Positions 20,322 through 37,698 of a stretch of 64,000 bases of DNA are shown here, in pieces (position 1 is the stretch's first letter; every line of letters begins with the position of its first letter). The notes beneath the pieces were generated by a model. That model was not told the origin of the DNA. It did not search any database and worked only from the letters and a program-made list of their open reading frames with translations. A program made the translations under genes and the position numbers. Source of the stretch: Candidatus Moraniibacteriota bacterium (GTDB lineage: Bacteria; Patescibacteriota; Minisyncoccia; Moranbacterales; UBA2206); assembly GCA_030679995.1 (NCBI GenBank), contig JAUXSK010000018.1:121492-185491 (forward strand). The letters are read 5' to 3'.

Positions 20322-20358
20322 GGACATAGTCTGAAGTTTGAAAAAATGTTTAAGAGGA

Positions 20359-20490
20359 CTATGATCCGCGCATTGAGATGAAATTTAGAAAGAATTGATT
20401 GGTCGCTTGCGTTTGCGCGGGGAGTCGAATGGCGAAACCGGTTTAGACCGAAAAGTTGCAAGACTTTTCAGCTTGGCCGGTTTTTTATTT
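20359..20490 (+). ncRNA. Conserved structured leader RNA, copy A, with an intrinsic terminator (candidate riboswitch/attenuator).
   Basis: About 85% identical to copies B and C. It has a long-range helix CCGCGCA/UGCGCGG, a conserved GGGGAGUCGAAUGGCGAAACCGG, and a long terminator hairpin followed by UUUUUU 34 nt before the GT2 start. Confidence 0.6.
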
Positions 20491-23380: not shown

Positions 23381-24281
23381 TGAAGAAGAAAATATCCGGC
23401 CGGTCTATGCCAGGATGAAAGAAACCATCCGGGCCATCCCTGACTACGAGTTCGAAGTCATTTTTGTCAATGACGGCAGTTCGGACGGGACTTGGGCGGA
23501 AATATCCGGGCTGGCTGAAAGTGAAAATGGGATCAAGGCTTTGAATTTCAGCCGCAACTTCGGACACCAGGCCGCGATCGAAGCCGGACTGGCCAATGCC
23601 GGAGGGGAGGCGGCGATAACTATGGACGGGGATATGCAACATCCGCCGGAAATTATTCCTGAATTGATCAGCAAATGGGAACAAGGTTTTGAAATCGTGA
23701 ACACCAAGCGGGAAGAAACCGAAGGCATCTCTTTTTTCAAAAAGATCGCTTCCGGCATTTTCTATCGTTTGATAAACAGCATTTCCGAAGTGCATATCGA
23801 AAGCGGCTCGGCCGATTTCAGATTGGTCGGCCGGCGGGCGATGGATGAATTGAACAGATTGACGGAAAAAAACAAATTCTACCGGGGATTGATCAGTTGG
23901 ATCGGATTTGAAAGCGCTACCGTGAAATACAAGGCGGAAAAAAGACTGGGCGGAAAATCCTCTTATACTTTCAACAAGATGCTGTCGTTGGCCAGGGTCG
24001 GCATAACTTCTTTCAGTATGTTGCCGATGAAAGTGATTCTCCTGTTCGGCGCGCTGCTTTTTTTCGGCGGATTTTTGCTGACGGCCGGGATGGTCTTTTG
24101 GCGGTATTGCATCGGGTCGGCGCTGTTCAGCGGGACGGGGATATTAGCGGCTTTCATCATAATGAATAATGGGTTGTTTATGGTGATGCTTGGAATCGTT
24201 TCGATGTATCAGATCAATATGTGCAAAGAATTGCAGAATCGGCCGAATTATATCATTACTGAAAAAATAAATCTCAGCTGA
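23343..24281 (+). CDS. GT2 polyprenyl-phosphate sugar synthase (DPM1/GtrB/ArnC-like) with two C-terminal TM helices.
   Basis: ISIVIPVYNEEENI...VNDGSSDGT...DGDMQHPPE and a C-terminal membrane hairpin. Confidence 0.75.
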   Translation: MRKKISIVIPVYNEEENIRPVYARMKETIRAIPDYEFEVIFVNDGSSDGTWAEISGLAESENGIKALNFSRNFGHQAAIEAGLANAGGEAAITMDGDMQHPPEIIPELISKWEQGFEIVNTKREETEGISFFKKIASGIFYRLINSISEVHIESGSADFRLVGRRAMDELNRLTEKNKFYRGLISWIGFESATVKYKAEKRLGGKSSYTFNKMLSLARVGITSFSMLPMKVILLFGALLFFGGFLLTAGMVFWRYCIGSALFSGTGILAAFIIMNNGLFMVMLGIVSMYQINMCKELQNRPNYIITEKINLS

Positions 24282-24305
24282 CTATTAATCATTAAGATCA
24301 GTATT

Positions 24306-25124
24306 ATGGATGAAAAAAATCCGAAAGTTTCCGTCCTGATGTCCGCCTATAATGAAGAGCGGTATGTCGGCGCCGCCATCGAAAGCATCCTGGACCAAAC
24401 CTACCATGATTTTGAATTGATCATCATCGATGACCGCAGTCAGGACGCGACCTGGGAATTGATCTCCGGGTATGCCGGACGCGATCCGCGGGTGAGGGCG
24501 TCCAGGAATGAAAAGAATCTGGGAATTTCCGGCGCGCTCAACAGAGGGCTCGTGCTGGCCCGCGGGGAATATGTCGTCAAGATGGACGCGGACGACTGGT
24601 CCTATCCGGACCGGCTGGAAAAGCAAGTCGGGTTTATGGAAAAAAATCCCCAAGTCGCCATCAGCGGCGGCACGATGGAAGTTTGCGATGAGAATCTGGC
24701 GGTCCTGAACAAACGGGCCTATAATCTGACCGACCGGGAGATACGCCGGAAAATTTTCCGGTACAATCCGTTCTGCCATCCGGCCGTGATCTACCGGACG
24801 GACATCGCCAAGGATGTCGGCGGCTATTGCCTGATCGATTCGGCCGGCGATTATGAATTATATTTCAAACTCGGATTGCACGGGGAGTTCGCCAACTTGC
24901 CGGACACCCTTTTGAAATACCGGGTCAATCGCGGCTCCATTTCCGTTTATAAGGCGAGAAGCCAGGAATGCGACACATTATATGTGCGGCTCAAGGCGGT
25001 TTTTGAATACGGCTACAAGATGCGCCCGGTCGATAAATTATATTTCGCCTGCCAGTTTTTGAGTATGTATCTCATCCCACAACGGATCAAAGCCTGGATA
25101 TTTAACCGATTAAGAAGCAGTTAA
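24306..25124 (+). CDS. Family-2 glycosyltransferase.
   Basis: VSVLMSAYNEERYV...IIIDDRSQDAT...VVKMDADD. Confidence 0.75.
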   Translation: MDEKNPKVSVLMSAYNEERYVGAAIESILDQTYHDFELIIIDDRSQDATWELISGYAGRDPRVRASRNEKNLGISGALNRGLVLARGEYVVKMDADDWSYPDRLEKQVGFMEKNPQVAISGGTMEVCDENLAVLNKRAYNLTDREIRRKIFRYNPFCHPAVIYRTDIAKDVGGYCLIDSAGDYELYFKLGLHGEFANLPDTLLKYRVNRGSISVYKARSQECDTLYVRLKAVFEYGYKMRPVDKLYFACQFLSMYLIPQRIKAWIFNRLRSS

Positions 25125-25129
25125 CCATT

Positions 25130-26806
25130 ATGGCCCGATTTTTTAAAAAAATCAGCGCGTCATTCCGCGAAAACATACTGCCGGTCACTTTGATCCTGGC
25201 GGCTTCTTTCAGTCTGGCGAGTTTCCTTTTTTTCTATTTGGACGGACAACAAAATACCACCTATTTCGACGCGCAATCCCATCTGAATATGTCCCGTAAA
25301 ATCGTGGACAATCTGAATCCCGGTCTGGGCCAACTCGGCGGTTTGTGGCTGCCGCTTTTGCACTTGCTGATGGTGCCGTTCATCTGGAGCGATTTTATGT
25401 GGCGTTCCGGCTGGGCAGGGGCTTGCGTTTCAATGCCGGCTTTCGTCCTGTCGGTCTATTTCGTTTTCAAGACCGTCGAGTTTCTTTTCCGCGATCGGAC
25501 GGCGGCTTTTCTCGGAGCTTTGGTATATATGGCCAGTATGAATATGCTTTTGCTCCAGAGTATGGCGATGATGGAGCCGCTATTTAATCTGACGATCATC
25601 GGCAGTATCTACTATCTTTCCCGTTGGGCCCGGACGGATAATTTAGCGGATCTGTCCATCGGGGCTTTCTTCGTTTTTTTGAGCACACTGACCCGCTATG
25701 AAGGCTATGCGGTTCTGGCGGCATCCGCCGCCGCCGTGCTCATCGTCACTTTCATAAAAAATTTCAACGCACGCCACTGGTATCGGATCGTGGAAGGCAA
25801 ATTCCTGATCTTTATGACACTGGCGTCTTTTGGCGTCTTACTGTGGCTGGCCTACTCGTTGGTGATTTTCGGCGATCCGTTGCATTGGACTCATCCTAAT
25901 ACTCGGGATGTGTCGGCGGTTATTGAAACCGTTCAAGATGGAAATCCGGCCGGACTTTTGCGCGGGGATCCCACGGACTATTACCGCCACGATTTATCCA
26001 GGGCGCTTCTGACATTCTGGTGGACCGCGGCCATCGGTAATGGTCTGATAGTTTTTTTAGCGGGCATAATAGGCTTCCTATCACTCCTGTGGTTTTGCGT
26101 GAAAAATAGCCGCTATGCCTATCTGTTCATTCCGGCCGTGCTGATTTCTGTCGCATTCCCGCTGTTCATCATAGCGCTGATGTATTTTGGACAGGTTTCG
26201 CTCTTGCCACCATTCCTCGGTTTCACCGGTATCTTCGACAAGGGGAATAATCTGGCCGACGAAGCCGGCATCCGTTACACTCTCGCGATGCTGCCTTTCG
26301 TCGCGATTTTTATGGGCTGGCTGGCCGCGGGCGGAGCCTATCGGAAAATCACCATCCTCCTGCTCATCGTTTTCCAAACAGGCTCCTTTTTTTTCGGTCC
26401 GCTGTTTCTGACCTATGATCTTTCCTTGAAATGGAAAGGCGTGTATGGACAGGAAAACCGTTCGGTGGAATGGTTCAAGAAAAATTATTCCGGCGGCCTC
26501 ATCCTGGAGAGCGCGTTGTCCCACGAGGCGGAGATGTTCCAGAACGGATTGGCATACAAGAACTATATCCACGAAGGGACGGGCCACTATTGGGAGGAAT
26601 CTTTGAAAAACCCGGTGCGCTACGCGACTTGGATAATTATGAACAAGAGCGCCAAGACCGACACGTCCGGCATTTGGGGGCAAGATATCTTGACCGACAA
26701 ATTCCGCGACTCGAAGATCTTGCGGAACAATTTCAATCTGGTTTATGACGACGGCAAAATCCTGATTTACAAAATAAAGTCCGGCAAGGATTTGCTCCGT
26801 TCTTGA
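25130..26806 (+). CDS. GT-C fold membrane glycosyltransferase (ArnT/PMT-like, about 12 TM).
   Basis: Polytopic N-terminal domain with a first extracytoplasmic loop carrying DAQSHL, plus a soluble C-terminal domain. It lies next to the DPM1-like GT2 that would make a lipid-linked donor for it (inference). Confidence 0.5.
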   Translation: MARFFKKISASFRENILPVTLILAASFSLASFLFFYLDGQQNTTYFDAQSHLNMSRKIVDNLNPGLGQLGGLWLPLLHLLMVPFIWSDFMWRSGWAGACVSMPAFVLSVYFVFKTVEFLFRDRTAAFLGALVYMASMNMLLLQSMAMMEPLFNLTIIGSIYYLSRWARTDNLADLSIGAFFVFLSTLTRYEGYAVLAASAAAVLIVTFIKNFNARHWYRIVEGKFLIFMTLASFGVLLWLAYSLVIFGDPLHWTHPNTRDVSAVIETVQDGNPAGLLRGDPTDYYRHDLSRALLTFWWTAAIGNGLIVFLAGIIGFLSLLWFCVKNSRYAYLFIPAVLISVAFPLFIIALMYFGQVSLLPPFLGFTGIFDKGNNLADEAGIRYTLAMLPFVAIFMGWLAAGGAYRKITILLLIVFQTGSFFFGPLFLTYDLSLKWKGVYGQENRSVEWFKKNYSGGLILESALSHEAEMFQNGLAYKNYIHEGTGHYWEESLKNPVRYATWIIMNKSAKTDTSGIWGQDILTDKFRDSKILRNNFNLVYDDGKILIYKIKSGKDLLRS

Positions 26807-26830
26807 TTATCCTAAGGATATCTGTTATGC
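26803..26830 (+). promoter_or_regulatory. Sigma70-like promoter driving leader RNA copy B.
   Basis: TTGATT, 16 nt spacer, TATGCT. Confidence 0.5.
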
Positions 26831-26871
26831 TGTGGATAGTTGAATATTGATAGAACGCCATACTTTGAAAG

Positions 26872-27009
26872 GCTATGATCCGTGCATTGAGATGAAATTT
26901 TGAGAGAGTTGATTGGTTGCTTACGTTTGCACGAGGAGTCGAATGGCAAAACCGGTTTGAACCAAAAAGTTGTGAGACTTTTTGGTTTAAGTCGGTTTTT
27001 ATTTTTTTT
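26872..27009 (+). ncRNA. Conserved structured leader RNA, copy B.
   Basis: Same motif as copy A. P1 carries a compensatory change (CCGUGCA/UGCACG versus CCGCGCA/UGCGCGG). The terminator stem ACCAAAAAGU/ACUUUUUGGU also covaries. U-run. Confidence 0.6.
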
Positions 27010-27057
27010 CTTTTTTTAGTCAGCTTCACCTAACTTTTTAATGGAATATTTTTTTCC

Positions 27058-29145
27058 ATGGTTTTTAATTATAAAATATTTATTATAGCTTTTGTTTTGA
27101 TCCTCTTTTTTATAGGGGGATTCAATATTTATTTTTCAAGAAAAAATATTGTAAAAAACAATCAAGTATCTGTCGAGCAATCAGATATATATCAAAAAAT
27201 AATAAATGAAGATATAAATAAATTAGAGCAAAAAACTGCCTTGACGGGCAAGATATATGTCGATGATCCTAATATCCCAGCGCCCACCAACCAGTGGTTC
27301 AGCTCAGTGATATTTGAAAAGACATCGCAACCTATATTCGCTTATCCGATGGCTGTGAAAATGAATAATGATGGGTTTGGGTTTTCCTATCCATCGGTTG
27401 TTTCAACGCAAGATACTGTTTTCGCTTCGTATAAATCTGATTTGAAAGTAGTTTTTCAAAAAAATGAGCTTGTTTCTAGTGTTTCATCTTTTGATGATAT
27501 GTCAGTCGGTGTTTTGCAAAAAAACGGAGAAAATACCATTTCAAAACTTAAAATTACGCACGGATCTCCTTTCGTATATATTTCGGTGTTGCCAGGCGAG
27601 TCTTTTAATATCCAATCAGAAGAGTTGATTTTAATGGATAAAAGTGCGGATTATTTTGTGTTTGCGTCTGGTGGAAAATTTTTCGCATTTTTCCCATCTT
27701 TAAATGAAATGTCTGTGAAAAAAAATGATGATCACTCGATTACCGTTTCCAATGTCCGCAAAGAAGCTCTTATTTCAATCGCTGTTTTGCCAAATCTTGA
27801 ATGTCTGGATATTTTCAGCCAGTATGCATTGGATCCGATAATTGGCACAAACGTTGATTTTAATGTGACGGATAATCGGATCAGCACTAAATACGAAATT
27901 GTTACGAAGAGCGGAGGAAAAACACTTTTTGCTTTGTTGCCAAACAGTTACGATTCTTTTGAACAACAGTTGAAAAATCAGAATCCAATTGGGGAGTATG
28001 ACACACTCAGGGGTAAACAGTTATTGTACCAGGGAAGGATCTTTGATTTTTCAGAGGAAGCTGGGCCTATTCCACGACAACTGGAAGTGTCATTTTTATC
28101 GCATTCTGACAAGGAAAATTTACGTAATTTTATTAAGACAGATGCAGATAGGTTAACAGTCACTGAGAATGATACCTATTTTGTTGGAAAAAAACTTTTT
28201 GCTATGGCGAATGTCTTGGATATAGCGGAGCAGCTTGGTATGGAAAGAGAATCGGATATTTTGAAAATAAAATTAAAAACTGAGTTAGAAACATGGAAAA
28301 ATAATACGCTGGCTGGCGGACAGCAGAAAAAATATTTTTACTATGATCCGATAATCAAAGGAATCGTGGGGGAGACGGCTAGTTTCGGCAGTGAGTTATT
28401 TAATGATCATAATTTTCATTACGGATATTTTATCTATGCGGCAAGCATACTCTCGCGCTATGACAATAAATATCTGTCGGATAACCAAACTTTTATCAAT
28501 CTGCTGGTGAAGGATATCGCCAATAATGACCGCGATGACAAAACATTTCCGTATCTGAGGGGTTTTGATGCTTATGAGGGACATAGTTGGGCTTCAGGCT
28601 TTGGGATGTTTGCTGACGGCAATAATCAGGAATCAAGTTCCGAGGCAGTCAACGCATGGTACGCATTGTATTTGTGGAGCGATATTATCGGAAATAAAAA
28701 TCTCAAGGAGACGGCGGAATATTTATATTTTAAGGAATCATCAAGCGCATTGGATTATTGGCTCAATATTGATAAGGGGGATTTGCGTTTTGAAAATTTC
28801 CAACATTCCATGGTAGCGCTTGTTTGGGGTGGAAAATTGGATTTTGCGACTTGGTTCAGTCCGCATCCAGAGGCTATGCTGGGAATCCAATTGATTCCGT
28901 TCAGTCCCGCTAGCGGTTATTTGGGGCGTGATGCGGGGCGTGTCCAGGAAAATTTGTCGTCAGAAAACGCTTTTCAGAGTCCCGCACTATTCAAGGATTA
29001 TCTGGCGATGTACCGGGCGTTTTATGATGTTACCGGAGCAAGGCAAATGATAGATAAATTGAAGCCAACAGACATCGATAGCGCGAATTCAAGGAGTTTT
29101 ATGGAGGCTTGGTTGCTTGTTCTCGAAAATAAGGAAAATCATTAA
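27058..29145 (+). CDS. Membrane-anchored GH81-like endo-beta-1,3-glucanase.
   Basis: N-terminal TM helix. NDHNFHYGYFIYAAS and NNQESSSEAVNAWYALYLW resemble the GH81 catalytic-region motifs (DHHFHYGY; E-x-S-S-E pair) as I recall them. Confidence 0.55.
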   Translation: MVFNYKIFIIAFVLILFFIGGFNIYFSRKNIVKNNQVSVEQSDIYQKIINEDINKLEQKTALTGKIYVDDPNIPAPTNQWFSSVIFEKTSQPIFAYPMAVKMNNDGFGFSYPSVVSTQDTVFASYKSDLKVVFQKNELVSSVSSFDDMSVGVLQKNGENTISKLKITHGSPFVYISVLPGESFNIQSEELILMDKSADYFVFASGGKFFAFFPSLNEMSVKKNDDHSITVSNVRKEALISIAVLPNLECLDIFSQYALDPIIGTNVDFNVTDNRISTKYEIVTKSGGKTLFALLPNSYDSFEQQLKNQNPIGEYDTLRGKQLLYQGRIFDFSEEAGPIPRQLEVSFLSHSDKENLRNFIKTDADRLTVTENDTYFVGKKLFAMANVLDIAEQLGMERESDILKIKLKTELETWKNNTLAGGQQKKYFYYDPIIKGIVGETASFGSELFNDHNFHYGYFIYAASILSRYDNKYLSDNQTFINLLVKDIANNDRDDKTFPYLRGFDAYEGHSWASGFGMFADGNNQESSSEAVNAWYALYLWSDIIGNKNLKETAEYLYFKESSSALDYWLNIDKGDLRFENFQHSMVALVWGGKLDFATWFSPHPEAMLGIQLIPFSPASGYLGRDAGRVQENLSSENAFQSPALFKDYLAMYRAFYDVTGARQMIDKLKPTDIDSANSRSFMEAWLLVLENKENH

Positions 29146-29154
29146 TAACATAAT

Positions 29155-31215
29155 TTGAAAACATTTATGCAACAACTAATTAAAAATAAAAACATATCCA
29201 GGATAGCGGCATACCTGTGGTTGGTTTTGGGTGAGATGTCTACGCTTGCGGCGATTATCGCTGTCGGATGGTTTTTGATTGGTTATTATGCGCATTTCGA
29301 ATTTTTGCAAACTGGCTATCAGGATTGGATTTATCATGCCTTTCGAGTTCAGGATATTTCTCAGTTCGGTATCGCTTCCTGGGATCATATTTGGAGCGGC
29401 GGTATAAATCATTGGCGAGCGTTTCAATATATTGAGCATATGCTTACTTATGGCGTGGTAAACCTAACTGGAATGTCTATTACGCATGCCATGCTTTGGA
29501 TATCGATAGTTGTTTTTATCGCATTACGTGTTTTTATGTATGGGGTACTCAGGTATTTGAAAATAAGCCGCTTGTTTAGCGCTGTCGCTGTTATTGTTTC
29601 ATTTGCATTTTCTCAACAGTGGACGGCCCTAAAGGAGTTTTCTATTTTTGTGGGTTTTATCGTGGTTCCGTTATATGTGTTGCTTTGGATTGCGACTTTA
29701 AAATCAATGCGCTATGTTTTTTTGCTTGCCGCTATCACCGGAGCGTCTTGGTCGATACACCCTGTCGTAGGTTATAGTATGTCCGGTATGCTCCTATTTC
29801 TCGTGCTTGCTAATAATCTCAAAAAGGACATAAGAAAATTGATGCTGGTTGTATTAGTATATTTCGTCAGTTCAATGCCATTCACAATACCGTATTTTTT
29901 TTCGGGATACAGCGTCAGTAATTTATTTTATGTTACGCCGCAGTTTTTGCGAATGTTGCTTGTTCCTGAATATTTTGGATTGAGCCTGCTCTATTTTATT
30001 TTGCTTGCTGTGAGTTGGGTAATTATGGTTGTAAAATCAAGCGAATCACCTCGCTGGGCAAAAATACTACTCTTGTATTGCACGGTTTATTTGTGCTTTA
30101 TTTATTTTGGTTTATTGGGATATTTTCCAGTTTTTATCAATAAATTTCAATTCTCGCGTGCCATTCCATTTATTGCTTTGGTATTACCTTTTTGTTTTGC
30201 TGCTTTTTTTCAGACCGCTCTTCCAAATATTCGATCGCGTATGGCGTACGCGATATTTATTGTATTGATAGCTATTGGCATTTCACAATCGATTGAAATT
30301 GCGACACGATATTCCGGTCAGCCGATAGACTCGATTCAAGACCCGGTGGCAATATATTTTGCAAACAAAGAAGTGCCATATGGAAGCATATATTTCAAAG
30401 ATGTTACTGAGGCAAGTTATTTAGGGAAAACCGGGTTGCGTTTTATAACATCGTACAATCAGCATTTATTACCCAATCCGTACTCTATGCGCTTCGACGG
30501 ACTTATGAAAACTGACATTTCTTATACTGGCGTAACGGAACGTCAGATAAAAATGATCAATGATTATAGTCTTGTTTTGGGAGTCGAATATGTCTTCATT
30601 CCTAAACTCTCTCCGCTTGTGAATGGTTTGACTGTCAGTCAAGGGGATTTTGACGCTCTATTTGAAAATTTGGGAGAAGTCAATGTGCCTTCGGATGTTT
30701 TTGCAGTTTTGCGTAATCGCCAGCCGATTGCAAATGCGTATGCTTTCGATAAAAATAATATGGATAATTTTCTTCGTTTTTCGGAGATACCCAAACCGAC
30801 ATTGCAAATTGATTCATATAAGCTGTGGGATGACGAAATCAGTCGTATGGCGCAATTGATACGGTCAGGACAAATGAAATCATTGCCGATGAGCTTTGTT
30901 TGGCCAAATAAACTTGTGGTGGATGCGAAAGAAATTCAAGATATGAATCAGCCAAGTTTGTTGTTAACTCAGAGTTATGATCAGAATTGGACTATAGAAA
31001 ATGAAAAGTCAGCGATTAAACCGACAAATTTGCGATTTATGTCAGTCAATCTTCCCAAGGAAAAAATTTCTGATAAGGTGGTCTTATCGAACAACTGGCC
31101 GCGTTGGCACTGGCCTATCCAATCACTCGGCCTGGTTATGATTGTTGTCACCGGAATTATTGCGATATTTCGAAGGCATAAAATAATAAATTCTACTAAT
31201 AGGACTAATTTATGA
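29155..31215 (+). CDS. Large polytopic membrane protein with a C-terminal extracytoplasmic domain and a final TM helix, function unknown (synthase accessory subunit?).
   Basis: About 10 TM helices in the first 380 aa, then a ~280-aa soluble domain, then the TM helix LGLVMIVVTGIIAIF. A 4-nt overlap (ATGA) with the downstream GT2 synthase implies translational coupling. Confidence 0.6.
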   Translation: MKTFMQQLIKNKNISRIAAYLWLVLGEMSTLAAIIAVGWFLIGYYAHFEFLQTGYQDWIYHAFRVQDISQFGIASWDHIWSGGINHWRAFQYIEHMLTYGVVNLTGMSITHAMLWISIVVFIALRVFMYGVLRYLKISRLFSAVAVIVSFAFSQQWTALKEFSIFVGFIVVPLYVLLWIATLKSMRYVFLLAAITGASWSIHPVVGYSMSGMLLFLVLANNLKKDIRKLMLVVLVYFVSSMPFTIPYFFSGYSVSNLFYVTPQFLRMLLVPEYFGLSLLYFILLAVSWVIMVVKSSESPRWAKILLLYCTVYLCFIYFGLLGYFPVFINKFQFSRAIPFIALVLPFCFAAFFQTALPNIRSRMAYAIFIVLIAIGISQSIEIATRYSGQPIDSIQDPVAIYFANKEVPYGSIYFKDVTEASYLGKTGLRFITSYNQHLLPNPYSMRFDGLMKTDISYTGVTERQIKMINDYSLVLGVEYVFIPKLSPLVNGLTVSQGDFDALFENLGEVNVPSDVFAVLRNRQPIANAYAFDKNNMDNFLRFSEIPKPTLQIDSYKLWDDEISRMAQLIRSGQMKSLPMSFVWPNKLVVDAKEIQDMNQPSLLLTQSYDQNWTIENEKSAIKPTNLRFMSVNLPKEKISDKVVLSNNWPRWHWPIQSLGLVMIVVTGIIAIFRRHKIINSTNRTNL

Positions 31216-32744
31216 GCATAAAACTATTGAAACAATACGTGCCGCACGCACGCATCACGTCCGCTAAAATTCTCAGTATGACCACAGTCTTTCTTTTGGG
31301 CGCCCCGATGGTCGTGATTTATTATGGAGCTTTTGTTTTTAATCCTGCCAATGCGGATAATGTCTTTATGTATATAATCCAGGTGGTTGCGGATATTATC
31401 GCGATTATAGCGTTGCTTGGACTTTGGGTGACGGTTCTTATGGATGTGATAACCCAGCAACATCATCGCTCGCATCATTTTGATCCAGGTGATTTTCTTG
31501 TTGAAAAAAAACCGACTATAGATATATTCGTGACTGCTATGGGTGAATCTTTAGAGACTCTTGAAGAAACTCTTACAGCAGCGATAAATATGGATTATCC
31601 GCATAACACTTTTATTTTGGATGATGGTAAATCCGATGCTTTAAAGAAGTTTGCACAATCATTGGGCGTGATATATGTTGTTCGTCCAGACAGGAGGCAT
31701 GCTAAGGCAGGGAATGTCAATAATGGACTAAGATTCAGCAAAAGTGAATTTTTCGCAATTTTTGATGCGGATCAAGTGCCTAAAAAAGATTTTATTACCA
31801 GGTTGTTGCCATACATGAAAGATTCGAAAATGGCAATGGTCCAATCTCCCCAATATTTCGCCAATACGCATTCTTTCATTGCGGCTGGAACATCACAGGC
31901 CCAAGAAGTTTTTTATAAATATGTTTGTCCGGCAAAAAATATCTCTAACTCAGCTTTTTGTGTCGGGACGAATGTTGTTTTCAGGCGTAGCGCCATCGAA
32001 GATATCGGCGGGATAGCCCGCAACAATTCGGAGGATATCTGGACATCATACCAGCTTCATGAAAATGGCTGGCACACGATTTTTGTGAATGAGGTATTGG
32101 CAATCGGCGAGGCTCCGGCGACGGTAGTTTCATATTTCAAACAGCAAAGGCGCTGGGCTAAGGGAGGGCTTTCGATGCTTTTTACGAAAAATCCGCTTCG
32201 ATCAAAAAAATTAAATCTTGATCAAAAAATGCAATATTTTATTTCCAATTCATTTTTTCTAGTCGGTGTGTCCATCTTTGTTTATGTGCTTTTTCCGATC
32301 CTGTATCTTCTCTTCGGCATCAAGCCTCTTGATACCGAAAATGGCATCGTTTGGGTACTTCATTACGTTCCTTATTTTGCTTTGTATTATTCTTTGACGT
32401 ATTTATTTTTAGGCAGTATTCGGTTGGAAACTCTTTCGACAGCATTGGCAAGTTTTTACCCATATCTGCTTGGACTTTTTTCAGCTCTTTTCGATACGGA
32501 GCAAGTATGGGTGGCAACGACTTCAAGAAAAAATACGGAAGACGCTTTTATGAAATGGGCGTGGCCGCATGTGTTTATAATTTTTCTTTCTCTGTTTAGC
32601 CTGGTTGTCGGATGGTATAATCCATATAATTTTTGGACGACAGTATTCAATACGGCATGGGTTGTTTTGAATGCCTATTTGCTCTTTTTGTTTATAACTG
32701 GAGAAAAAAGAATTGTTAAAAATAGAAATAATATAATTCAATAA
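31212..32744 (+). CDS. Processive GT2 beta-glycan synthase (cellulose/curdlan/chitin-synthase-like).
   Basis: ILDDGKSD, FDADQVP and QQRRWAKGG (QxxRW) motifs; N- and C-terminal TM bundles. Confidence 0.75.
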   Translation: MSIKLLKQYVPHARITSAKILSMTTVFLLGAPMVVIYYGAFVFNPANADNVFMYIIQVVADIIAIIALLGLWVTVLMDVITQQHHRSHHFDPGDFLVEKKPTIDIFVTAMGESLETLEETLTAAINMDYPHNTFILDDGKSDALKKFAQSLGVIYVVRPDRRHAKAGNVNNGLRFSKSEFFAIFDADQVPKKDFITRLLPYMKDSKMAMVQSPQYFANTHSFIAAGTSQAQEVFYKYVCPAKNISNSAFCVGTNVVFRRSAIEDIGGIARNNSEDIWTSYQLHENGWHTIFVNEVLAIGEAPATVVSYFKQQRRWAKGGLSMLFTKNPLRSKKLNLDQKMQYFISNSFFLVGVSIFVYVLFPILYLLFGIKPLDTENGIVWVLHYVPYFALYYSLTYLFLGSIRLETLSTALASFYPYLLGLFSALFDTEQVWVATTSRKNTEDAFMKWAWPHVFIIFLSLFSLVVGWYNPYNFWTTVFNTAWVVLNAYLLFLFITGEKRIVKNRNNIIQ

Positions 32745-32755
32745 GATAAAATAAT

Positions 32756-33544
32756 ATGCCAAGGACAATATTCGCAGAAATCAAACAATGGTTAATAAAT
32801 AGCGCGTATTTCGTCGCAGTCTTTGTATTGGCCTTTGGAATCGCGACACAAGCATTGGTACGGCGAGTGAATGGTTATGAGGCGACCAAGAAGCCCCTAT
32901 TTTTTTCTATAAACAAGGAAAATATTATATTGTCAAATTCTGTTGCTGGAAGAATCGAAAATGTCGCAGTTTCAACGGGTGAACATGTGCACAAAGGGGA
33001 TCTGCTTGTTAGCATAGTGGATGATTCTATGACGCAGCGCATCATTGCTTTGAAGGGATTGGCTAATAATAATATTTCCGCTGAAACGGAATTGGAAACG
33101 CTCAAATCGCGCGTGGGGGAATATGAAATTCGTGCGCCTCGAGACGGGGTGATTTATTACATTTCGGCGGCTGAAGGAAGTTATTTAAATGCCAGTTCTC
33201 CGATTTTGACTATGTTTGCGGATAGCAATGTAAAAATTATGGGTATGGTAAATCAGGAACAATATACAAAAATACAACAAAACAAAGAAATCGATGTCTA
33301 TAGCCCTCGATTTGAGCAGGTGTATAAAATAATTTTTACAGGTGTCGGGCGCGTACAAGCAGCAACAAATTATGAAGAGAGTAAGTTCGAAATCCAATTC
33401 CGTTTTGCAGATGAAGAGAATGGCGCAGCTTTCATCGAGGGTGAGCAACTTGAAATGATAGCCAGAAATGATACCGATGATGCTGCTTTAAAGCCGTCTT
33501 TTCGCATCGCTAAATTGTGGAATAATATGATTTTAGGGGATTAA
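32756..33544 (+). CDS. HlyD/biotin-lipoyl-like membrane-fusion-type protein with a single N-terminal TM.
   Basis: TM anchor then GRIENVAVSTGEHVHKGDLLVSI, a lipoyl-like hairpin typical of MFPs. Confidence 0.5.
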   Translation: MPRTIFAEIKQWLINSAYFVAVFVLAFGIATQALVRRVNGYEATKKPLFFSINKENIILSNSVAGRIENVAVSTGEHVHKGDLLVSIVDDSMTQRIIALKGLANNNISAETELETLKSRVGEYEIRAPRDGVIYYISAAEGSYLNASSPILTMFADSNVKIMGMVNQEQYTKIQQNKEIDVYSPRFEQVYKIIFTGVGRVQAATNYEESKFEIQFRFADEENGAAFIEGEQLEMIARNDTDDAALKPSFRIAKLWNNMILGD

Positions 33545-33588
33545 ATCGCTTTATTTTCAGCCATTTGCCAGATTTCCGATTGTCTGAT

Positions 33589-33597
33589 ATTATCTGG
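33589..33597 (+). promoter_or_regulatory. Extended -10 (TGaTATTAT) about 39 nt upstream of leader RNA copy C.
   Basis: Same -10-to-element spacing as in copies A and B (38-42 nt). Confidence 0.4.
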
Positions 33598-33635
33598 GCA
33601 ACAGCAGAATCTTAAAAATAGCATACTTAAAAAGA

Positions 33636-33770
33636 TTATGATCCGCGCATTGTGATGAAATTTCGAGAGAGTTTCTTGGTCACTTATGTTTGTGCGGGGA
33701 GTCTAATAGTGAAACCGGTTTGGGCCGAAAAGTTGTGAGACTTTTCAGTTTGGACCGGTTTTTTATTTTT
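33636..33770 (+). ncRNA. Conserved structured leader RNA, copy C.
   Basis: Same motif. P1 has a G-U variant (UGUGCGG). The terminator is followed by UUUUUUAUUUUU. It lies 134 nt before the first TasA-like gene. Confidence 0.6.
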
Positions 33771-33903
33771 GGAAAAACAACCCAATTTTAATATATATAA
33801 AGGTCGAGGCGGAAACTGCCTAAAGTTTCAAAATTTTTATTCCGATTCATAAAATAGGAATAAAAAATAATTTTAATCAGCGTTTAATAAATAATAAAAA
33901 ACT

Positions 33904-35088
33904 ATGAAAAAAATGATCAAAAGCGGACTCATCGTGCTCGCGGTCGCTGCAATTGCCGGGTATGGAACATACTCTTTCTTTAGCGACACAGAAACGTCTT
34001 CGGGAAACAATTTTACCGCAGGAGAAATCGACCTGACCGTGACCAATACTGGCAGCGCTACGGACGGCGCTTGTACGTTTGATAATACGCCAGGCGGACC
34101 GATTTTTAATTGTACTGATGTGAAGCCTGGAGACAATGGTGAAAGCACATTGAACTTCAACCTTACAAGCAATCCTGCTTGGGCTTGTATGTATGTGGAC
34201 AATGTTGTTGATAGTGATAATGGGTGCAACGATCCGGAATTGGCTGCTGAATCAGTTTGTACGGAAGATGGAAATGGTGAATTAGACAACGCTCTAATGC
34301 TGACTGTTTGGGTTGATGACGGCGCTGGAGATGGCGGAACAGCATGTAATAATATCCGAGACGGATCAGAAGAGGTAATTATAGGCAATCAGGCGTTAAG
34401 CTCTTTTGTGTTGCCAACGGGAGGCTATGTCCTTCCTATTTCAGACGCAAGTGCTGATTCTATGATGACCGCTCCAGTCCAACCGGGTGACCATTGTGTC
34501 GGTGTCGCGTGGAGTGTCGATCCAACAACAGGAAACGAAGTGCAGACAGATAAATTAGGTGGTGATCTGACCTTCTATGTTGAACAGGCAAGAAACAATG
34601 ATGGATTCACATGCGCGGCACATTTCACGCCTGCGGAAGGAGTGCAAACATTGACTCTTGAAAATGAGATACAGAATCCGACAGGACCTTGGACACCGAT
34701 TACCGGTGACGGGATACAAGGAACATTAGTTTGGCAAGGAGATGGAGATACATTTGATTACACTCTAACTGCGCAAGGATTACCTGCTAATTCATCATAC
34801 AGTTTGATTTATTATGCTGATCCTTACCCAGGTAATAATCCAGGTAAATTAATCGGAACACACATGACCGATGGAGATGGCGAAATCGATGCTGCTGGAA
34901 ATCCAGATTTAGGAATGGATTTGCCAGATCCTGCAGATGCTAACTTCGGGACTGGTGCTAAGATTTGGTTGATTCCAAGCAGTGCATATGATGCTGCGAG
35001 CAGTAGTATCATTTCTTGGACACCAGATACTACTACCTGGTTGTTCGAAGGTAATGTTTACATCCATTACAACGATACGAATAACTAA
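33904..35088 (+). CDS. TasA/camelysin-like secreted protein with a SipW-cognate signal peptide (paralog 1).
   Basis: MKKMIKSGLIVLAVAAIAGYGTYSFFSDTETSSGNNFTAGEIDL matches the SipW-cognate class motif. A paralog-conserved DVKPGDNGE...AWACMYVD block follows. Confidence 0.75.
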   Translation: MKKMIKSGLIVLAVAAIAGYGTYSFFSDTETSSGNNFTAGEIDLTVTNTGSATDGACTFDNTPGGPIFNCTDVKPGDNGESTLNFNLTSNPAWACMYVDNVVDSDNGCNDPELAAESVCTEDGNGELDNALMLTVWVDDGAGDGGTACNNIRDGSEEVIIGNQALSSFVLPTGGYVLPISDASADSMMTAPVQPGDHCVGVAWSVDPTTGNEVQTDKLGGDLTFYVEQARNNDGFTCAAHFTPAEGVQTLTLENEIQNPTGPWTPITGDGIQGTLVWQGDGDTFDYTLTAQGLPANSSYSLIYYADPYPGNNPGKLIGTHMTDGDGEIDAAGNPDLGMDLPDPADANFGTGAKIWLIPSSAYDAASSSIISWTPDTTTWLFEGNVYIHYNDTNN

Positions 35089-35199
35089 ACAAGATGTAGT
35101 CTTTTACTTCCGCTCATTTTCAAAATGGGCGGGAGAATAAAGATCTAAGGATAATTAATTACTTGCATAAGTAAGTACCTAAGTAAGTATTAAAACAAT

Positions 35200-36543
35200 A
35201 TGATGAAAATATTGAAAAGCCTTGCAATCGTCATTGCCATCGCGGCTATCGCGGGGGGAGCATCCTATTCGTTTTTCTCTGACACGGAAATGTCAGCTGG
35301 CAATATGTTCACGGCGGGAGTTATTAATTTAAAAATTGATAATTCAAGTTATGCCATAGATTCTGTTATTCCTGGGTTTGATGATCCGGTGGGAGATTTG
35401 GTTGCGAGTCCGCACAATACCTGGTCCTATGACAACCTCACCGATCAACTATTTTTCAATTTTGAAGATTTGAAACCGGGGGATATAGGGGAAGACACGA
35501 TCGGTTTGCAGGTTTCCAGTAATGACGCTTGGGCGTGTATGAAGGTGGACATAACGGACACTCCTGAAAATGATTTGATAGATCCGGAAGCAGAAGCAGG
35601 GGACAAGACAGAAAAGAACGGGGAACTTCAAGATGAGCTAAGTTTCGCTTTTTGGGCGGATGACGGGGACAATGTATATGAAGATGAGGAAGTCACGCTT
35701 GATGATGGCAATCCGGGCATATTTTTAGAGGGAAAAGCCGCAGATATTTTCAAAAATAAATTTATTACGCTGGCTGATTCAATGGCTGATGTGTGGCCTG
35801 GCGGCAATGGCCGTCCGATAATCGCGGGTGAAAATTATTATATTGCTAAGGTTTGGTGCTTTGGAAAATTGACTCCGGCACCTGTCTCATCCGGAGACGG
35901 AGATCCTCTCCATCGCGGAACTGGATTTTTATGTGATGGAGATTCAGTTTCTAGCGCGTCTCAAACGGATGGGATAAAAGCGGACGTGACATTCTACTCT
36001 GAGCAAGCTAGAAATAATCCGCACTTCGTCTGTAATCAGCAGGAGTGCTTGGCTGATACTGTCTATACTTCAGAAGTCGAAAGCAATGTCCAAGGTACGC
36101 TCAATGATGGCACTCCTGTGATTGATCCGGATCGGACTGACCCAAGTGAGGCTAATGGTCCGCCAGATTGGGTTAGTGGAACTGGCACGAACTTCTATAG
36201 TCTGGGTAAAGGTGGGACAGTGACTCTGAAATTTGCCGATGTCGTCGGTAATGGGAATGGAAATGACCTCGCTGTCTATGAAGCGACCAACGGGCGCGAT
36301 TCATATCCGCTGGAAAGTGCGGATGTGGAAGTGAGCCTCAATGGAAAGGCTTGGTATCCTGTTGGCATAGCCACAAGCGAACCTGGTGGGGATGGCGTTT
36401 CATATTTTGATATATCTTCCACTCCTCTTTCAATGTTCAAATATGTAAGACTGACTGATTCGACTGATTTCTCTTTGCACAACAGTATCTCCGACGGATT
36501 TGATTTGGACGCGGTTGGTGGTGTCTACGGAGAGTGCGAATAA
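35200..36543 (+). CDS. TasA/camelysin-like secreted protein (paralog 2).
   Basis: MMKILKSLAIVIAIAAIAGGASYSFFSDTEMSAGNMFTAGVINL, then DLKPGDIGEDTIGLQVSSNDAWACMKVD. Confidence 0.75.
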   Translation: MMKILKSLAIVIAIAAIAGGASYSFFSDTEMSAGNMFTAGVINLKIDNSSYAIDSVIPGFDDPVGDLVASPHNTWSYDNLTDQLFFNFEDLKPGDIGEDTIGLQVSSNDAWACMKVDITDTPENDLIDPEAEAGDKTEKNGELQDELSFAFWADDGDNVYEDEEVTLDDGNPGIFLEGKAADIFKNKFITLADSMADVWPGGNGRPIIAGENYYIAKVWCFGKLTPAPVSSGDGDPLHRGTGFLCDGDSVSSASQTDGIKADVTFYSEQARNNPHFVCNQQECLADTVYTSEVESNVQGTLNDGTPVIDPDRTDPSEANGPPDWVSGTGTNFYSLGKGGTVTLKFADVVGNGNGNDLAVYEATNGRDSYPLESADVEVSLNGKAWYPVGIATSEPGGDGVSYFDISSTPLSMFKYVRLTDSTDFSLHNSISDGFDLDAVGGVYGECE

Positions 36544-36592
36544 TTATTGTTAAATATGTGATGTCCATCGCGTGCTATAAGAATACATTCTA

Positions 36593-37675
36593 ATGAATAA
36601 GATTATAACAAAATTTTCTAGAAACCTGATCATAGCCGTTTTTATTTTAGCTATGGGGGGATATGAGACGTATGCTTGTGTCGTGCAAGGCAAGGAGCTT
36701 TTTTGGCATAACTTTCCCGATAAGAAATTGGATTTGGAGATAAGCTATGCCGGATATTATAATAAGGATGCCGACAATCATCCCAATGCGGGAAGCTGGC
36801 GGCAACAGGACCTGACTACGCAGAAATTTTTTGATTTCTATGATATCAAACCGGGCGATTTCGGTGAGGGCACAATCGGCTTGCGCCTCAAGCACCAAGA
36901 TGCTTGGGGTTGTGCCACCATCCGTCCGACCGAAAATGATGATAATGGCTCCACTGAACCGGAATTGTTCGAGGATGCGCAAAATGTGGCAGCTGATAAA
37001 TGGGATGGCGAGTTGGCGAAAAAAATTAATTTTAAGATCTGGGCCGATGTTTGTTCGAAAAGATATGTGAAAGCGGGCGATAATGTTTTTCAGCCTGATT
37101 GCGATCGGCTTATAACCAGCGGTACCGGTCCGTTGCAGGAGCTTGACTTAGTTTTGGCTGACACTGAAAATCCGAATGTTTTCAACGGGAATATGGGACC
37201 GCTCAAAAAAAACAAAAACTATTATATAGGCGTAGATTGGAATATCGATTCGGATGTCGGCAATATCATCCAAACTGATTCATATAAGGCAGACATAACT
37301 TTTTTTGTCCAGCAGTCGGTTGGCAACCAGGACTTCCGTTGCGCTGATATCCGTAATGATGATCCGGATAAATGCTCGGATGGCGCCATACGCAATTGTT
37401 ATTCAGGTGATTTCGATAAAATCGATATCGGCATCTGTCGAAGCGGGACTGAAGCTTGCGTTCAAGGAAACTGGGGAAATTGTTCCGGAGAGATTTTTCC
37501 TGACAAGGAAATCTGCAAAGACAATCTGGATAACGACTGTGACGGGCAAATCGATGAAGGATGCCCGCCAATATGCCAGCGCGTGAGTGATTGCGACGAC
37601 CACAATTCAAAAACCGATGACAACTGCGTGAATAAAGAATGCGTGCATACGGAGAAAAAGAATTTAAAACGGTAA
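36593..37675 (+). CDS. Divergent TasA-like paralog 3 with a C-terminal cysteine-rich MopE-like/EGF-like metal-binding domain.
   Basis: DIKPGDFGEGTIGLRLKHQDAWGCATI is conserved with paralogs 1 and 2. C-terminus: CSDGAIRNCYSGDFDKIDIGICRSGTEACVQGNWGNCSGEIFPDKEICKDNLDNDCDGQIDEGCPPICQRVSDCDDHNSKTDDNCVNKEC. Confidence 0.65.
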   Translation: MNKIITKFSRNLIIAVFILAMGGYETYACVVQGKELFWHNFPDKKLDLEISYAGYYNKDADNHPNAGSWRQQDLTTQKFFDFYDIKPGDFGEGTIGLRLKHQDAWGCATIRPTENDDNGSTEPELFEDAQNVAADKWDGELAKKINFKIWADVCSKRYVKAGDNVFQPDCDRLITSGTGPLQELDLVLADTENPNVFNGNMGPLKKNKNYYIGVDWNIDSDVGNIIQTDSYKADITFFVQQSVGNQDFRCADIRNDDPDKCSDGAIRNCYSGDFDKIDIGICRSGTEACVQGNWGNCSGEIFPDKEICKDNLDNDCDGQIDEGCPPICQRVSDCDDHNSKTDDNCVNKECVHTEKKNLKR

Positions 37676-37698
37676 TACATAAAATAATATGAAAAGAT

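Follow-up and report, generated by a model that had tools for sequence, protein, structure and literature searches.

We describe a conserved and previously undescribed four-gene module of CPR (Patescibacteria) genomes, centred on Moranbacteria and seen here in a Candidatus Moranbacteria genome. It encodes a GH81 hydrolase, a membrane glycosyltransferase of GT-C fold, a processive GT2 synthase and a HlyD-like adaptor, and we give an even chance to the proposal that these proteins make and process a surface or secreted β-glucan by a synthase-dependent route, under riboswitch control in the present genome. Most CPR bacteria have never been cultured; their cells are tiny and probably attach to others, and the composition of their surfaces is little known. 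Few conserved envelope systems of several genes can be defined in this group from sequence alone; the module would be one of them, and it predicts both a specific polymer, a β-1,3-linked glucan, and an enzyme, GH81, for detecting that polymer. A search of the literature on GH81, cellulose synthase or curdlan in CPR, Moranbacteria or Patescibacteria found nothing relevant.

Layout and conservation of the module

All four open reading frames proposed in the initial annotation are real, and their grouping as one module is borne out by synteny that is conserved across 31 loci of Moranbacteria, Woesebacteria and Paceibacterota. Throughout this set the order GT-C, GT2, HlyD-like is invariant (Table 1 gives the coordinates here). 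The GT2 gene follows the GT-C gene in 29 loci, the other two being cut by contig ends, and the HlyD-like gene, present in 27 loci and cut off in the remaining four, lies after GT2 in all 27 that reach far enough. GH81 is found in 26 of the 31; four others are cut, and in one the contig stops right behind the HlyD-like gene. Wherever the contig extends, GH81 adjoins the module, although its location is variable and takes three different positions. An invariant gene order, together with a GH81 gene that is variably placed but always adjacent, argues that the genes form one functional unit.

The window (the whole 64-kb stretch of DNA analysed) also contains the ATGA through which GT2 had been said to be coupled to the preceding gene, the GT2 start codon and GT-C stop codon overlapping at 31212-31215; in related loci these two genes likewise overlap or nearly do so. 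An ATG four codons after the TTG of the GT-C reading frame is the start of NCBI's 682-aa version.

Table 1. Positions of the module genes, leader RNAs and associated features in the window
Feature	Position	Strand	Length	Remarks
Leader copy A	20346-20490	+		Ahead of operon 20524-26806; 156.5 bits
PgfS/GtrB-like polyprenyl-phosphate sugar synthase	23343-24281	+		Leader-A operon
Candidate extended -10 promoter element (CTGTTATGCTG)	26822-26832	+		Putatively for the module's own transcript
Leader copy B	26860-27005	+		Ahead of module; covariance model, 164 bits
Membrane-anchored GH81 endo-β-1,3-glucanase (predicted)	27058-29145	+	695 aa	Pfam, PDB matches
GT-C-fold membrane glycosyltransferase, new CPR-restricted family	29155-31215	+	686 aa	TTG start
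Processive GT2 β-glucan synthase (predicted)	31212-32744	+	510 aa	BcsA/CrdS/BgsA superfamily
Membrane-anchored HlyD/MFP-like adaptor	32756-33544	+	262 aa	Pfam HlyD_3, RND_mfp
Leader copy C	33623-33768	+		Ahead of operon from 33904; 169 bits

Hydrolase and synthase

The product of the first gene is a GH81 protein with an intact active site, as judged from alignments, and is predicted to hydrolyse β-1,3-glucan. Both Pfam domains of the family score above their curated cut-offs of 25.6 bits (Glyco_hydro81C, PF17652, 219.4 bits, 1.1e-64; Glyco_hydro_81, PF03639, 38.6 bits, 9.6e-10), and the whole length of the protein can be aligned with solved bacterial GH81 endo-β-1,3-glucanases (6FOP, 1.6e-83; BH0236, 7e-64), in agreement with the family originally proposed. 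Its single N-terminal transmembrane segment, at residues 7-25, likewise upholds the membrane anchoring that had been claimed. N449-D450-H451 and D520..E525..E529 are invariant in eight module-linked GH81 proteins; they include D450, E525 and E529, the active-site acids in DH...QESSSE. The catalytic position was read from PDB mutant sequences, as a literature search gave no residue numbers: E525 aligns with the Glu that is mutated in inactive entries, to Ala in 6FOP and to Gln in 5UPI. Endo-β-1,3-glucanase is the sole activity reported for GH81, and PsLam81A does not cleave mixed-linkage glucan, cellulose, β-1,6-glucan or β-1,2-glucan (PMC9609564).

The synthase shows the D,D,D,QxxRW signature of the processive GT2 that it had been taken for, with D137/D138, D185xD187, S273-E-D275 and Q311xxR314-W315 invariant in 118 relatives. 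It resembles BcsA, CrdS and BgsA in type and not NodC or the chitin synthases: among NCBIfam models CelA scores highest, with 248 bits, and NodC reaches 37. Equivalog cut-offs are nonetheless missed widely (TIGR03030, CelA, 248.5 against 699.1 bits; NF008558, BcsA, 194.9 against 992 bits). The closest solved structure is BcsA, from E. coli (5e-50) and R. sphaeroides (1e-45), in an alignment that stops at residue 682, before PilZ. Neither PilZ nor any other C-terminal domain is present in the module synthase, whose chain ends past its last transmembrane helices at residue 510, and the family is 481-531 aa long across the 118 sequences. Of the characterised references, BgsA scores best, at 33% identity and 8e-68 (218 and 206 bits for two BgsA sequences), followed by RsBcsA at 170 bits and CrdS at 149. 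A neighbour-joining tree with few references, themselves taken from an OCR-read supplement with a few errors, places the Moranbacteria GT2s outside (BcsA,(CrdS,BgsA)). By these comparisons the synthase is a clade of its own in the BcsA/CrdS/BgsA superfamily, outside the CrdS clade.

Clade-discriminating residues, which we took from S8 Table of PMC6821405, bear on the linkage of the product. The module family matches CrdS at V318 (117 of 118 sequences) and T320 (all 118), both of which are CrdS-only states in that table, as well as at C317, T357, Y376, Q276, Q298 and K309, the last three being listed among the glucan-contacting residues of CrdS (PMC6821405). Mismatches with CrdS fall at 295, 321, 322, 359, 387, 402 and 412, and the other discriminating positions are either BcsA-like (E299, Y302, A336, H351, P370) or like neither enzyme. 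The acceptor motif reads F-C-V-G-T-N, against FFCGS in BcsA, and the gating loop W-[VTI]-A-T-[TS]-x-[KR] keeps part of BcsA's FxVTxK. Because the acceptor residues C-V-G-T are of curdlan type, the chain most likely has runs of β-1,3 linkages, although sequence is an unreliable guide to linkage. The β-1,3, curdlan-like product of the initial annotation is therefore retained in part: the strict association with GH81 and the C-V-G-T motif speak for β-1,3 linkage, but the position outside the CrdS clade does not, and linear curdlan is doubtful.

These data also bear on a reading in which the hydrolase and synthase do not share a polymer, the GT2 making cellulose or a mixed-linkage β-1,3/1,4 glucan while GH81 digests foreign β-1,3-glucan, such as laminarin or fungal and algal walls, as food or in attacking a host. 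The ranking of BgsA and then BcsA among the references would fit, as would the several BcsA-like residues and the general reliance of CPR bacteria on external carbon. However, GH81 still adjoins the module through three rearrangements and as far as Woesebacteria, and the enzyme is tethered to the membrane, with no carbohydrate-binding module detected in a Pfam scan and no sugar transporter travelling with it in the related module loci. The acceptor motif, too, is of the CrdS type and not of the BcsA or BgsA type, and neither of the two proposed products, mixed-linkage glucan and cellulose, is cut by GH81 enzymes (PMC9609564). We consider a non-cognate GH81 unlikely, and favour a hydrolase that would act on the module's own polymer.

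GT-C transferase, adaptor and leader RNA

The 686-aa protein had been interpreted as a BcsB-like subunit of a polytopic kind with a large extracytoplasmic domain. The topology is as described, with about 12 transmembrane helices, an extracytoplasmic domain of about 270 aa and a C-terminal transmembrane helix, but the BcsB-like identity is contradicted by two fold-search methods, both of which found a GT-C fold and returned GT-C enzymes as every top match; no Pfam or NCBIfam model matches the protein. D57, which lies just past the first transmembrane helix within Y55-x-D57-W58, is invariant in 37 sequences and corresponds to the acidic residue that GT-C enzymes conserve in their first extracytoplasmic loop. 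In relatives, the GT-C protein is fused, with coherent topology, to a polyprenyl-phosphate-sugar synthase (ArnC/PgfS/DPM1-like domains), and such a synthase is fused or adjacent in 17 of the 31 related loci. Cassettes of GtrA and polyprenyl-phosphate-sugar synthase adjoin the module in related loci, where an HpnE/CrtI-like flavoprotein (PRK07233 family) accompanies them. The fusions and GtrA neighbours suggest that the GT-C enzyme would use a polyprenyl-phosphate-linked sugar donor. Within the module operon of this window there is no polyprenyl-phosphate-sugar synthase; a candidate supplier of the donor in this genome is the PgfS/GtrB-like protein of the leader-A operon, which scores 252 bits (6.3e-75) against NCBIfam PgfS, under the equivalog cut-off, and whose link to the module we infer.

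Two further readings turn on this protein. One keeps the logic of cellulose synthesis, with a trio plus an adaptor in which the 686-aa protein is a non-catalytic guide, the product is linear curdlan and GH81 is the analogue of BcsZ. A large outside domain followed by a C-terminal helix does recall BcsB, the gene does overlap that of the synthase, and the donor-synthase gene is absent from the operon here. Yet given the GT-C fold and the fusions to polyprenyl-phosphate-sugar synthases, the analogy with cellulose synthase omits an enzymatic step, a step that makes plain linear curdlan doubtful, and we hold this arrangement to be very unlikely. The other reading assigns the GT-C enzyme and the synthase separate targets, the former glycosylating surface proteins, a membrane glycolipid or a teichoic-acid-like polymer (compare PMT, PglB and YfhO) and the two merely sharing an operon. 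Protein glycosyltransferases (Pmt4, Pmt2, STT3 and PglB) are indeed among the top structural matches, distant family members match PF10131 and YfhO, and the same riboswitch family stands ahead of surface-protein operons. Against it, no locus departs from the order GT-C then GT2, the genes overlapping or nearly so, and the GT-C family is small (155 clusters), all members with an examined locus (31 loci) adjoining the synthase gene. Separate targets thus have a low probability in our estimate, and a GT-C enzyme that works with the synthase is the reading we carry forward.

The last gene encodes a HlyD-like protein, as first annotated, with matches to Pfam HlyD_3 (1.6e-13, 51.7 bits against a cut-off of 22.2), HlyD_D23 (41.4 against 30) and RND_mfp. 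It has barrel-sandwich (lipoyl) and β-barrel domains and one transmembrane segment, at residues 13-38. Aligned to MacA (4DK0), it has about 10 residues where MacA has an α-hairpin of about 68. BLASTP of this protein against a BgsB homologue gave no specific similarity.

The module had been placed under the control of a leader RNA, one of two copies. Copy B and its terminator are real, but the window holds three copies, not two. The second GT2 (20524-22101) does head the operon behind copy A, which comprises GT2/Wzx/GtrB-like/GT2/GT-C genes, and the operon behind copy C encodes proteins with SipW-type signal peptides (TasA/camelysin-like). In copy B, a c-di-GMP-II-like aptamer (about 26864-26966) overlaps an intrinsic terminator of 20 pairs (stem 26950-26997, plus a U tract). 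Its Rfam scores lie under the gathering scores of both c-di-GMP-II models (RF01786, 18.1 against 53.5 bits; RF03169, the c-di-GMP-II-GAG variant, 21.4 bits, E 0.028, against 40), as does that of the best leader homologue against c-di-GMP-II, which spans positions 1-84 of 84 (44.9 bits, E 3.7e-9, against 53.5). Every copy of the leader stays under these gathering scores, and at that threshold Rfam reported only tRNAs in the window and six related loci. Pairing in P1, P1b, P2 and the pseudoknot holds in 95.1% of cells, compared with at most 41.7% in slid controls; 12 of 22 pairs have changed on both sides, and none of 500 shuffles reached the observed values. Genes downstream of leader homologues encode giant surface proteins, TasA/SipW-like products and a GT2.

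On this basis the leader is a candidate c-di-GMP-II-like riboswitch family that is lineage-specific, supported by covariation and equipped with a competing terminator, and for which c-di-GMP binding is predicted. Since the 3' strands of the aptamer form the 5' arm of the terminator, ligand binding should stop termination, making the leader an ON switch. A covariance model and Rfam found no leader in 36 related module loci, and no GGDEF/EAL genes for c-di-GMP turnover were found in the window. The putative promoter element of the module (Table 1) corresponds to a CTGnTATGCTG block that leader regions A and B share unchanged, and the region of copy C has TTGCCA-17-TATTAT at 33565-33593. A TATGAT within the leaders was considered as a -10 box and set aside, since it coincides with CUAUGA, a conserved part of the c-di-GMP-II-GAG aptamer consensus, and the separate CTGnTATGCTG block lies upstream.

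Proposed pathway and known systems

The homology to BcsA, CrdS and BgsA suggests that UDP-glucose is the substrate from which the GT2 builds a glucose polymer, and that the growing chain leaves through a membrane channel within the enzyme itself. By analogy with BgsB and BgsA, the short, hairpin-less HlyD-like protein may help in export or assembly. The GT-C enzyme would move a sugar from a polyprenyl-phosphate carrier at the outer face, most probably onto the emerging glucan, to form a branch, a cap or an anchor. Of this step, the GT-C fold and the fusions with donor synthases are observed, and the acceptor is our inference. The membrane-tethered GH81 might then cut, release or remodel the polymer, as BcsZ, PslG, PelA and AlgL do elsewhere. 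In this genome only, a transcript from the module's own promoter would cross the c-di-GMP-II-like aptamer, with ligand leading to read-through, and such RNA-level control may take over the role of a PilZ domain, which is absent from the synthase.

A more specific proposal, which we put forward tentatively as possible rather than probable, is a pathway of CPR's own in which a curdlan-type GT2 and a GT-C enzyme in place of BcsB, fed by the cassette of GtrA, flavoprotein and polyprenyl-phosphate-sugar synthase, yield a branched or capped β-1,3-glucan (laminarin- or scleroglucan-like) at the cell surface; membrane-bound GH81 would remodel it, and a divergent c-di-GMP-II riboswitch would activate the pathway in some lineages. 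If true, this would give, for the first time to our knowledge, a BcsA-like synthase with a GT-C enzyme as an integral partner, and also the first CPR envelope polysaccharide to be defined. It would represent a new assembly of the synthase-dependent exopolysaccharide machine, joining a GT-C enzyme for lipid-linked sugar to a BcsA-like synthase, with a hairpin-less membrane-fusion protein operating in a host that lacks an outer membrane. The GT2 clade may be a natural intermediate of cellulose, curdlan and mixed-linkage synthases, and could reveal the residues that set linkage. The candidate riboswitch family, with its predicted ligand, would add CPR bacteria to the groups whose matrix genes are under RNA control of the c-di-GMP type.

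Several known systems share parts of this design. Like BcsA-BcsB with BcsZ, the module combines a processive membrane GT2 (D, DxD, (T/S)ED, QxxRW) with a co-encoded hydrolase; it differs in that the GT2 has no PilZ, the partner is a GT-C protein and not BcsB, and the hydrolase is GH81 instead of GH8. CrdS of the Agrobacterium crdASC locus belongs to the same GT2 superfamily and also lacks PilZ, whereas its V295, W359, T387, Y/F402 and H412 are absent from the module GT2, as are counterparts of CrdA and CrdC. We know of no GH81, GT-C or MFP partner for crdASC.

The mixed-linkage β-glucan system BgsB-BgsA (with TolC) of Sinorhizobium is a precedent for pairing a GT2 with a HlyD-type adaptor gene (locus L009), and a cyanobacterial tripartite cellulose system is cited alongside it (PMC13438883). 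BgsA and the module GT2 each have two N-terminal transmembrane helices, but the gene order is reversed in the module, the acceptor motif is C-C-G-S in BgsA and C-V-G-T here, and the C-terminal c-di-GMP-binding region of BgsA has no equivalent, the alignment ending at about BgsA residue 439 of 664. In contrast to BgsB, the module adaptor is without a TolC-docking hairpin. CPR hosts have no outer membrane.

The leader shares with the c-di-GMP-II riboswitch (RF01786, variant RF03169) its conserved unpaired nucleotides, P1, P2 and pseudoknot, a terminator platform and an association with surface or matrix genes; it differs in a 36-38-nt insertion that replaces the apical loop, and in its CPR hosts. 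Finally, GtrA/GtrB/GtrC, CsbB/GtcA/YfhO and PgfS-type systems are three-component machines for extracytoplasmic glycosylation. Related loci have the same set, a cytoplasmic polyprenyl-phosphate-sugar synthase, a GtrA-family protein and a GT-C transferase, but here the trio is joined to a glucan synthase machine, and the donor synthase is often fused to the GT-C enzyme.

Module architecture and conservation

The initial annotation gave four module open reading frames, all borne out exactly, and the ATGA overlap it proposed between the stop of the second gene and the start of the GT2 gene is present in the sequence at 31212-31215. The second gene opens with TTG, the NCBI start being an ATG four codons further on, and the HlyD-like gene begins 11 bases past the GT2 stop codon. 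A protein encoded on a 196-kb contig of a Candidatus Moranbacteria MAG is 100% identical to the GT2, which places the window in a CPR/Patescibacteria genome.

Features of the window discussed in the text
Feature	Position	Strand	Description
Leader A	20346-20490	+	c-di-GMP-II-like RNA and terminator
Leader-A operon	20524-26806		
PgfS/GtrB-like gene	23343-24281		in the leader-A operon
Leader B	26860-27005	+	c-di-GMP-II-like RNA and terminator
GH81 gene	27058-29145	+	module; next gene starts at 29155
GT-C gene	29155-31215	+	module; 686-aa protein
GT2 gene	31212-32744	+	module
HlyD-like gene	32756-33544	+	module
Leader C	33623-33768	+	c-di-GMP-II-like RNA and terminator
Leader-C operon	33904-38355		
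S24/S26 signal peptidase gene	37699-38355		after the three camelysin-like genes
390-aa ORF	40333-41505	-	weak PF20686 match

Gene presence was assessed by tblastn in 31 loci (26 GTDB species representatives and five metagenome loci), mostly from Moraniibacteriota, with three Woesebacteria, one Paceibacterota and several automatically labelled MAGs. The GT-C gene is followed by a BcsA-like GT2 gene in 29 of the 31, and the HlyD-like gene comes next in 27; the remaining two and four, respectively, are cut by contig ends. GH81 was found in 26 loci, four others are cut, and the contig of the last, L031, stops just past the HlyD-like gene. The GH81 gene has three placements relative to the others: ahead of them, which is the window's arrangement, or behind them on either the same or the opposite strand. 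That it changes place yet is never lost from the module is good evidence that these genes are functionally coupled as one unit.

In 17/31 loci a polyprenyl-phosphate-sugar synthase is encoded, either as a fusion with the GT-C or close by. Beside it, in 16 loci (counting L007, a duplicate of L019), lie a GtrA-family gene and a gene for an HpnE/CrtI-like flavoprotein (NCBIfam PRK07233, 443 bits); these sit at 6223-7993 in L006 and 6213-7996 in L007, and occur in L017-L027, L029, L030 and L038. A possible role of this flavoprotein, which is of isoprenoid-desaturase type, is to modify either the lipid carrier or the sugar linked to it. The window operon contains no synthase, GtrA or flavoprotein gene of these kinds; the operon next to it has a PgfS/GtrB-like gene. 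The complete Moranbacteria genome CP064989.1 (L008) carries a fused GT2+GtrA gene after the HlyD-like gene, and a large GH94-family gene (PF06165 and PF17167; locus positions 1-1855), of beta-glucan phosphorylase or cyclic glucan synthase type, sits upstream of its module at a distance of about 4 kb.

The G+C content is 0.38-0.41 over 26-34 kb of the window (26001-34000) versus 0.48-0.51 in the 12 kb before, and the closest relatives, L011 and L012, carry a PBP gene upstream of the module in place of the leader-A operon; on these grounds this lineage may have relocated the module or acquired it. In one Moranbacteria MAG (L001/L002/L028; JBBCGM010000001.1, JBBCBH010010996.1) the module appears broken: the GH81 is called at 335-342 aa, the GT-C is divided between two ORFs, and what follows the GT2 is just a short fragment, which could reflect pseudogenisation or assembly/frameshift errors. 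The CPR-type module also occurs in TPA MAGs titled 'uncultured Bdellovibrionales', 'Bacteriovoracaceae', 'Gammaproteobacteria' and 'Pseudomonadales' (L015, L018, L020-L023, L025, L026, L031, L033, L035), whose organism labels are probably unreliable.

Leader RNAs and neighbouring operons

Two leader copies had been annotated; we found three paralogous ones, each ahead of one operon. Because the leader is missing from all 36 related module loci, it is not part of the module as such. No leader copy reaches an Rfam gathering score, and the best match of the short leader region was c-di-GMP-II-GAG (21.4 bits, E 0.028, below gathering), with the conserved unpaired nucleotides matched. Scanning metagenomes with the leader 3' core gave 15 loci, among which a covariance model recovered 13 full-length homologs (62-115 bits). 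These match c-di-GMP-II far more strongly than the window leaders do (44.9 bits, E 3.7e-9, model positions 1-84 of 84; then 35.9, 32.7 and 29.2 bits), the chief difference from that family being a 36-38-nt apical-loop insertion in the homologs. As all leader copies score below Rfam gathering thresholds, the window copies and the 13 metagenomic homologs (L041-L052 among their loci) seem to form a CPR branch of the c-di-GMP-II clan that had gone unrecognised.

Covariation supports the fold. In a 12-sequence alignment, 95.1% of cells are paired across P1, P1b, P2 and a pseudoknot (GGUCGC with GCGAAACC), versus at most 41.7% with partners slid; 12 of 22 pairs show compensatory changes, and none of 500 shuffles reached the observed values. 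The 3' strands of the pseudoknot and P1 also form the 5' arm of a 20-pair terminator, so aptamer fold and terminator are mutually exclusive and ligand binding should permit read-through. Behind the leader homologs lie genes for giant surface proteins (1,854-2,273 aa), for TasA/camelysin-like proteins with a SipW-type peptidase, and for a homolog of the window's first GT2, a gene set typical of c-di-GMP regulons. No GGDEF or EAL gene lies within the window.

The leader-A operon would be a second pathway to an envelope glycan, with the same kind of RNA controlling it. Its products are a 525-aa membrane GT2 that weakly resembles CelA/PgaC, a Wzx-like flippase, a PgfS/GtrB-like synthase, a second GT2 and a 558-aa protein whose weak, sub-threshold PMT_2 match makes it a possible second GT-C. 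The leader-C operon encodes three proteins (394, 447 and 360 aa) with SipW-dependent-type signal peptides and camelysin (Peptidase_M73)-like N-termini, followed by a signal peptidase; it represents a TasA/SipW-like fibre system in a genome of the CPR. After its own module, L011 carries a Peptidase_M73 gene in the corresponding place. Further on, a 390-aa ORF weakly matches PF20686, the carboxysome shell carbonic anhydrase catalytic domain (27.2 bits, cut-off 21.5), which is unexpected for a CPR genome.

The synthase and the hydrolase

The GT2 is a member of the BcsA/CrdS/BgsA superfamily and not of NodC type (NCBIfam CelA 248 bits versus NodC 37 and PgaC 76; PDB BcsA at 5e-50), and so passes the check that the initial annotation asked for. 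Across 118 relatives (481-531 aa) no catalytic motif varies, and none of these proteins carries a PilZ domain or any other domain at the C-terminus. The best matches in plasmid and chromid records are rhizobial pairs of an HlyD-family and a glycosyltransferase gene, and L009 has the bgsBA arrangement; BgsA makes mixed-linkage beta-glucan with BgsB and TolC (PMC13438883). Against RsBcsA, AtCrdS and SmBgsA references taken from the S1 Fig in PMC6821405, whose OCR text contains a few errors, the window GT2 scored 218 and 206 bits with BgsA sequences, 170 with BcsA and 149 with CrdS. In a neighbour-joining tree the Moranbacteria GT2s branch outside all three and therefore form a separate clade.

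At the 33 clade-discriminating positions (S8 Table of PMC6821405) the family is a mosaic, CrdS/BgsA-like at Q276, Q298, K309, C317, T357 and Y376, BcsA-like at E299, Y302, A336, H351 and P370, and BgsA-like at G387. Its acceptor-site motif is F-C-V-G-T, whereas BcsA has F-F-C-G-S and BgsA F-C-C-G-S; V318 (117/118) and T320 (118/118) are exclusive to the curdlan-synthase clade (PMC6821405 S8 Table). In simulations, CrdS Gln237, Gln259 and Lys270, which our alignment equates with RsBcsA positions 276, 298 and 309, are among the residues holding the first glucoses of a beta-1,3 chain (PMC6821405). These CrdS-type residues are suggestive, not decisive.

The hydrolase was rightly assigned to GH81: both Pfam GH81 domains exceed curated cut-offs, residues 74 to 675 align with the solved GH81 6FOP (1.6e-83), and Bacillus halodurans BH0236 matches at 7e-64. 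One hydrophobic segment at the N-terminus (residues 7-25) is expected to anchor it in the membrane, leaving the catalytic domain on the outer side. Eight module-linked GH81s share the invariant blocks N-D-H-x-F-H-Y-G-Y, G-H-S-W-A and D-G-N-N-Q-E-S-x-S-E-A. E525, the first Glu of QESSSE, is marked as catalytic because two depositor groups made inactive enzymes for their complexes by replacing its equivalent, giving QASSSE in 6FOP and QQSSSE in 5UPI with its related entries. The sole activity reported in GH81 is endo-beta-1,3-glucanase, and PsLam81A does not cleave barley mixed-linkage glucan, cellulose, pustulan or beta-1,2-glucan (PMC9609564).

The GT-C protein, the adaptor and known systems

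The 686-aa protein has no sequence match in Pfam, NCBIfam or PDB. An AlphaFold2 model based on 37 homologs has high confidence (pLDDT 91.4, pTM 0.90), and the best 16 Foldseek matches in the PDB are all GT-C (including AftD, PglB, AftA, STT3, AglB, ArnT and ALG9), so that the modelled fold points to a GT-C glycosyltransferase and excludes BcsB. Asp57, invariant in the family, comes just past TM1 within Y-x-D-W-I-Y-H, which is where GT-C enzymes such as PglB, ArnT and PMT have their catalytic acid. About 20 homologs (927-952 aa) have an additional N-terminal PF00535 domain, best matched in NCBIfam by ArnC, PgfS and DPM1-type polyprenyl-phosphate sugar synthases. As this soluble domain of ~240 residues leads straight into TM1, the predicted topology is coherent, with the synthase domain inside and the Asp57 loop outside. 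The family is tiny (155 cluster representatives in 1.84 billion proteins), and its farthest members link to PF10131, YfhO and DUF6541, each of them a GT-C family. Some distant members (P0267, P0296, P0262, P0269) have N-terminal response-regulator receiver/TPR domains or are embedded in 1,500-2,150-aa proteins.

The HlyD-like protein exceeds the Pfam HlyD_3 and HlyD_D23 cut-offs and has one N-terminal TM helix. In alignment its lipoyl halves are ~10 residues apart, versus a ~68-residue hairpin in MacA (4DK0), and it thus lacks the TolC-docking element, which fits CPR cells, as these have no outer membrane. It shows no specific similarity to a BgsB homolog.

Our literature search returned no description of such a four-part system. 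The initial observation was correct, and that one module makes and trims a glucan with beta-1,3 linkages is now better supported. Inferred throughout from sequence, fold and gene context, the machine would combine a synthase of its own clade, an enzymatic GT-C partner that draws on lipid-linked sugar, an adaptor with no hairpin and a membrane-tethered GH81; it does not replicate the BcsA/BcsB/BcsZ set.
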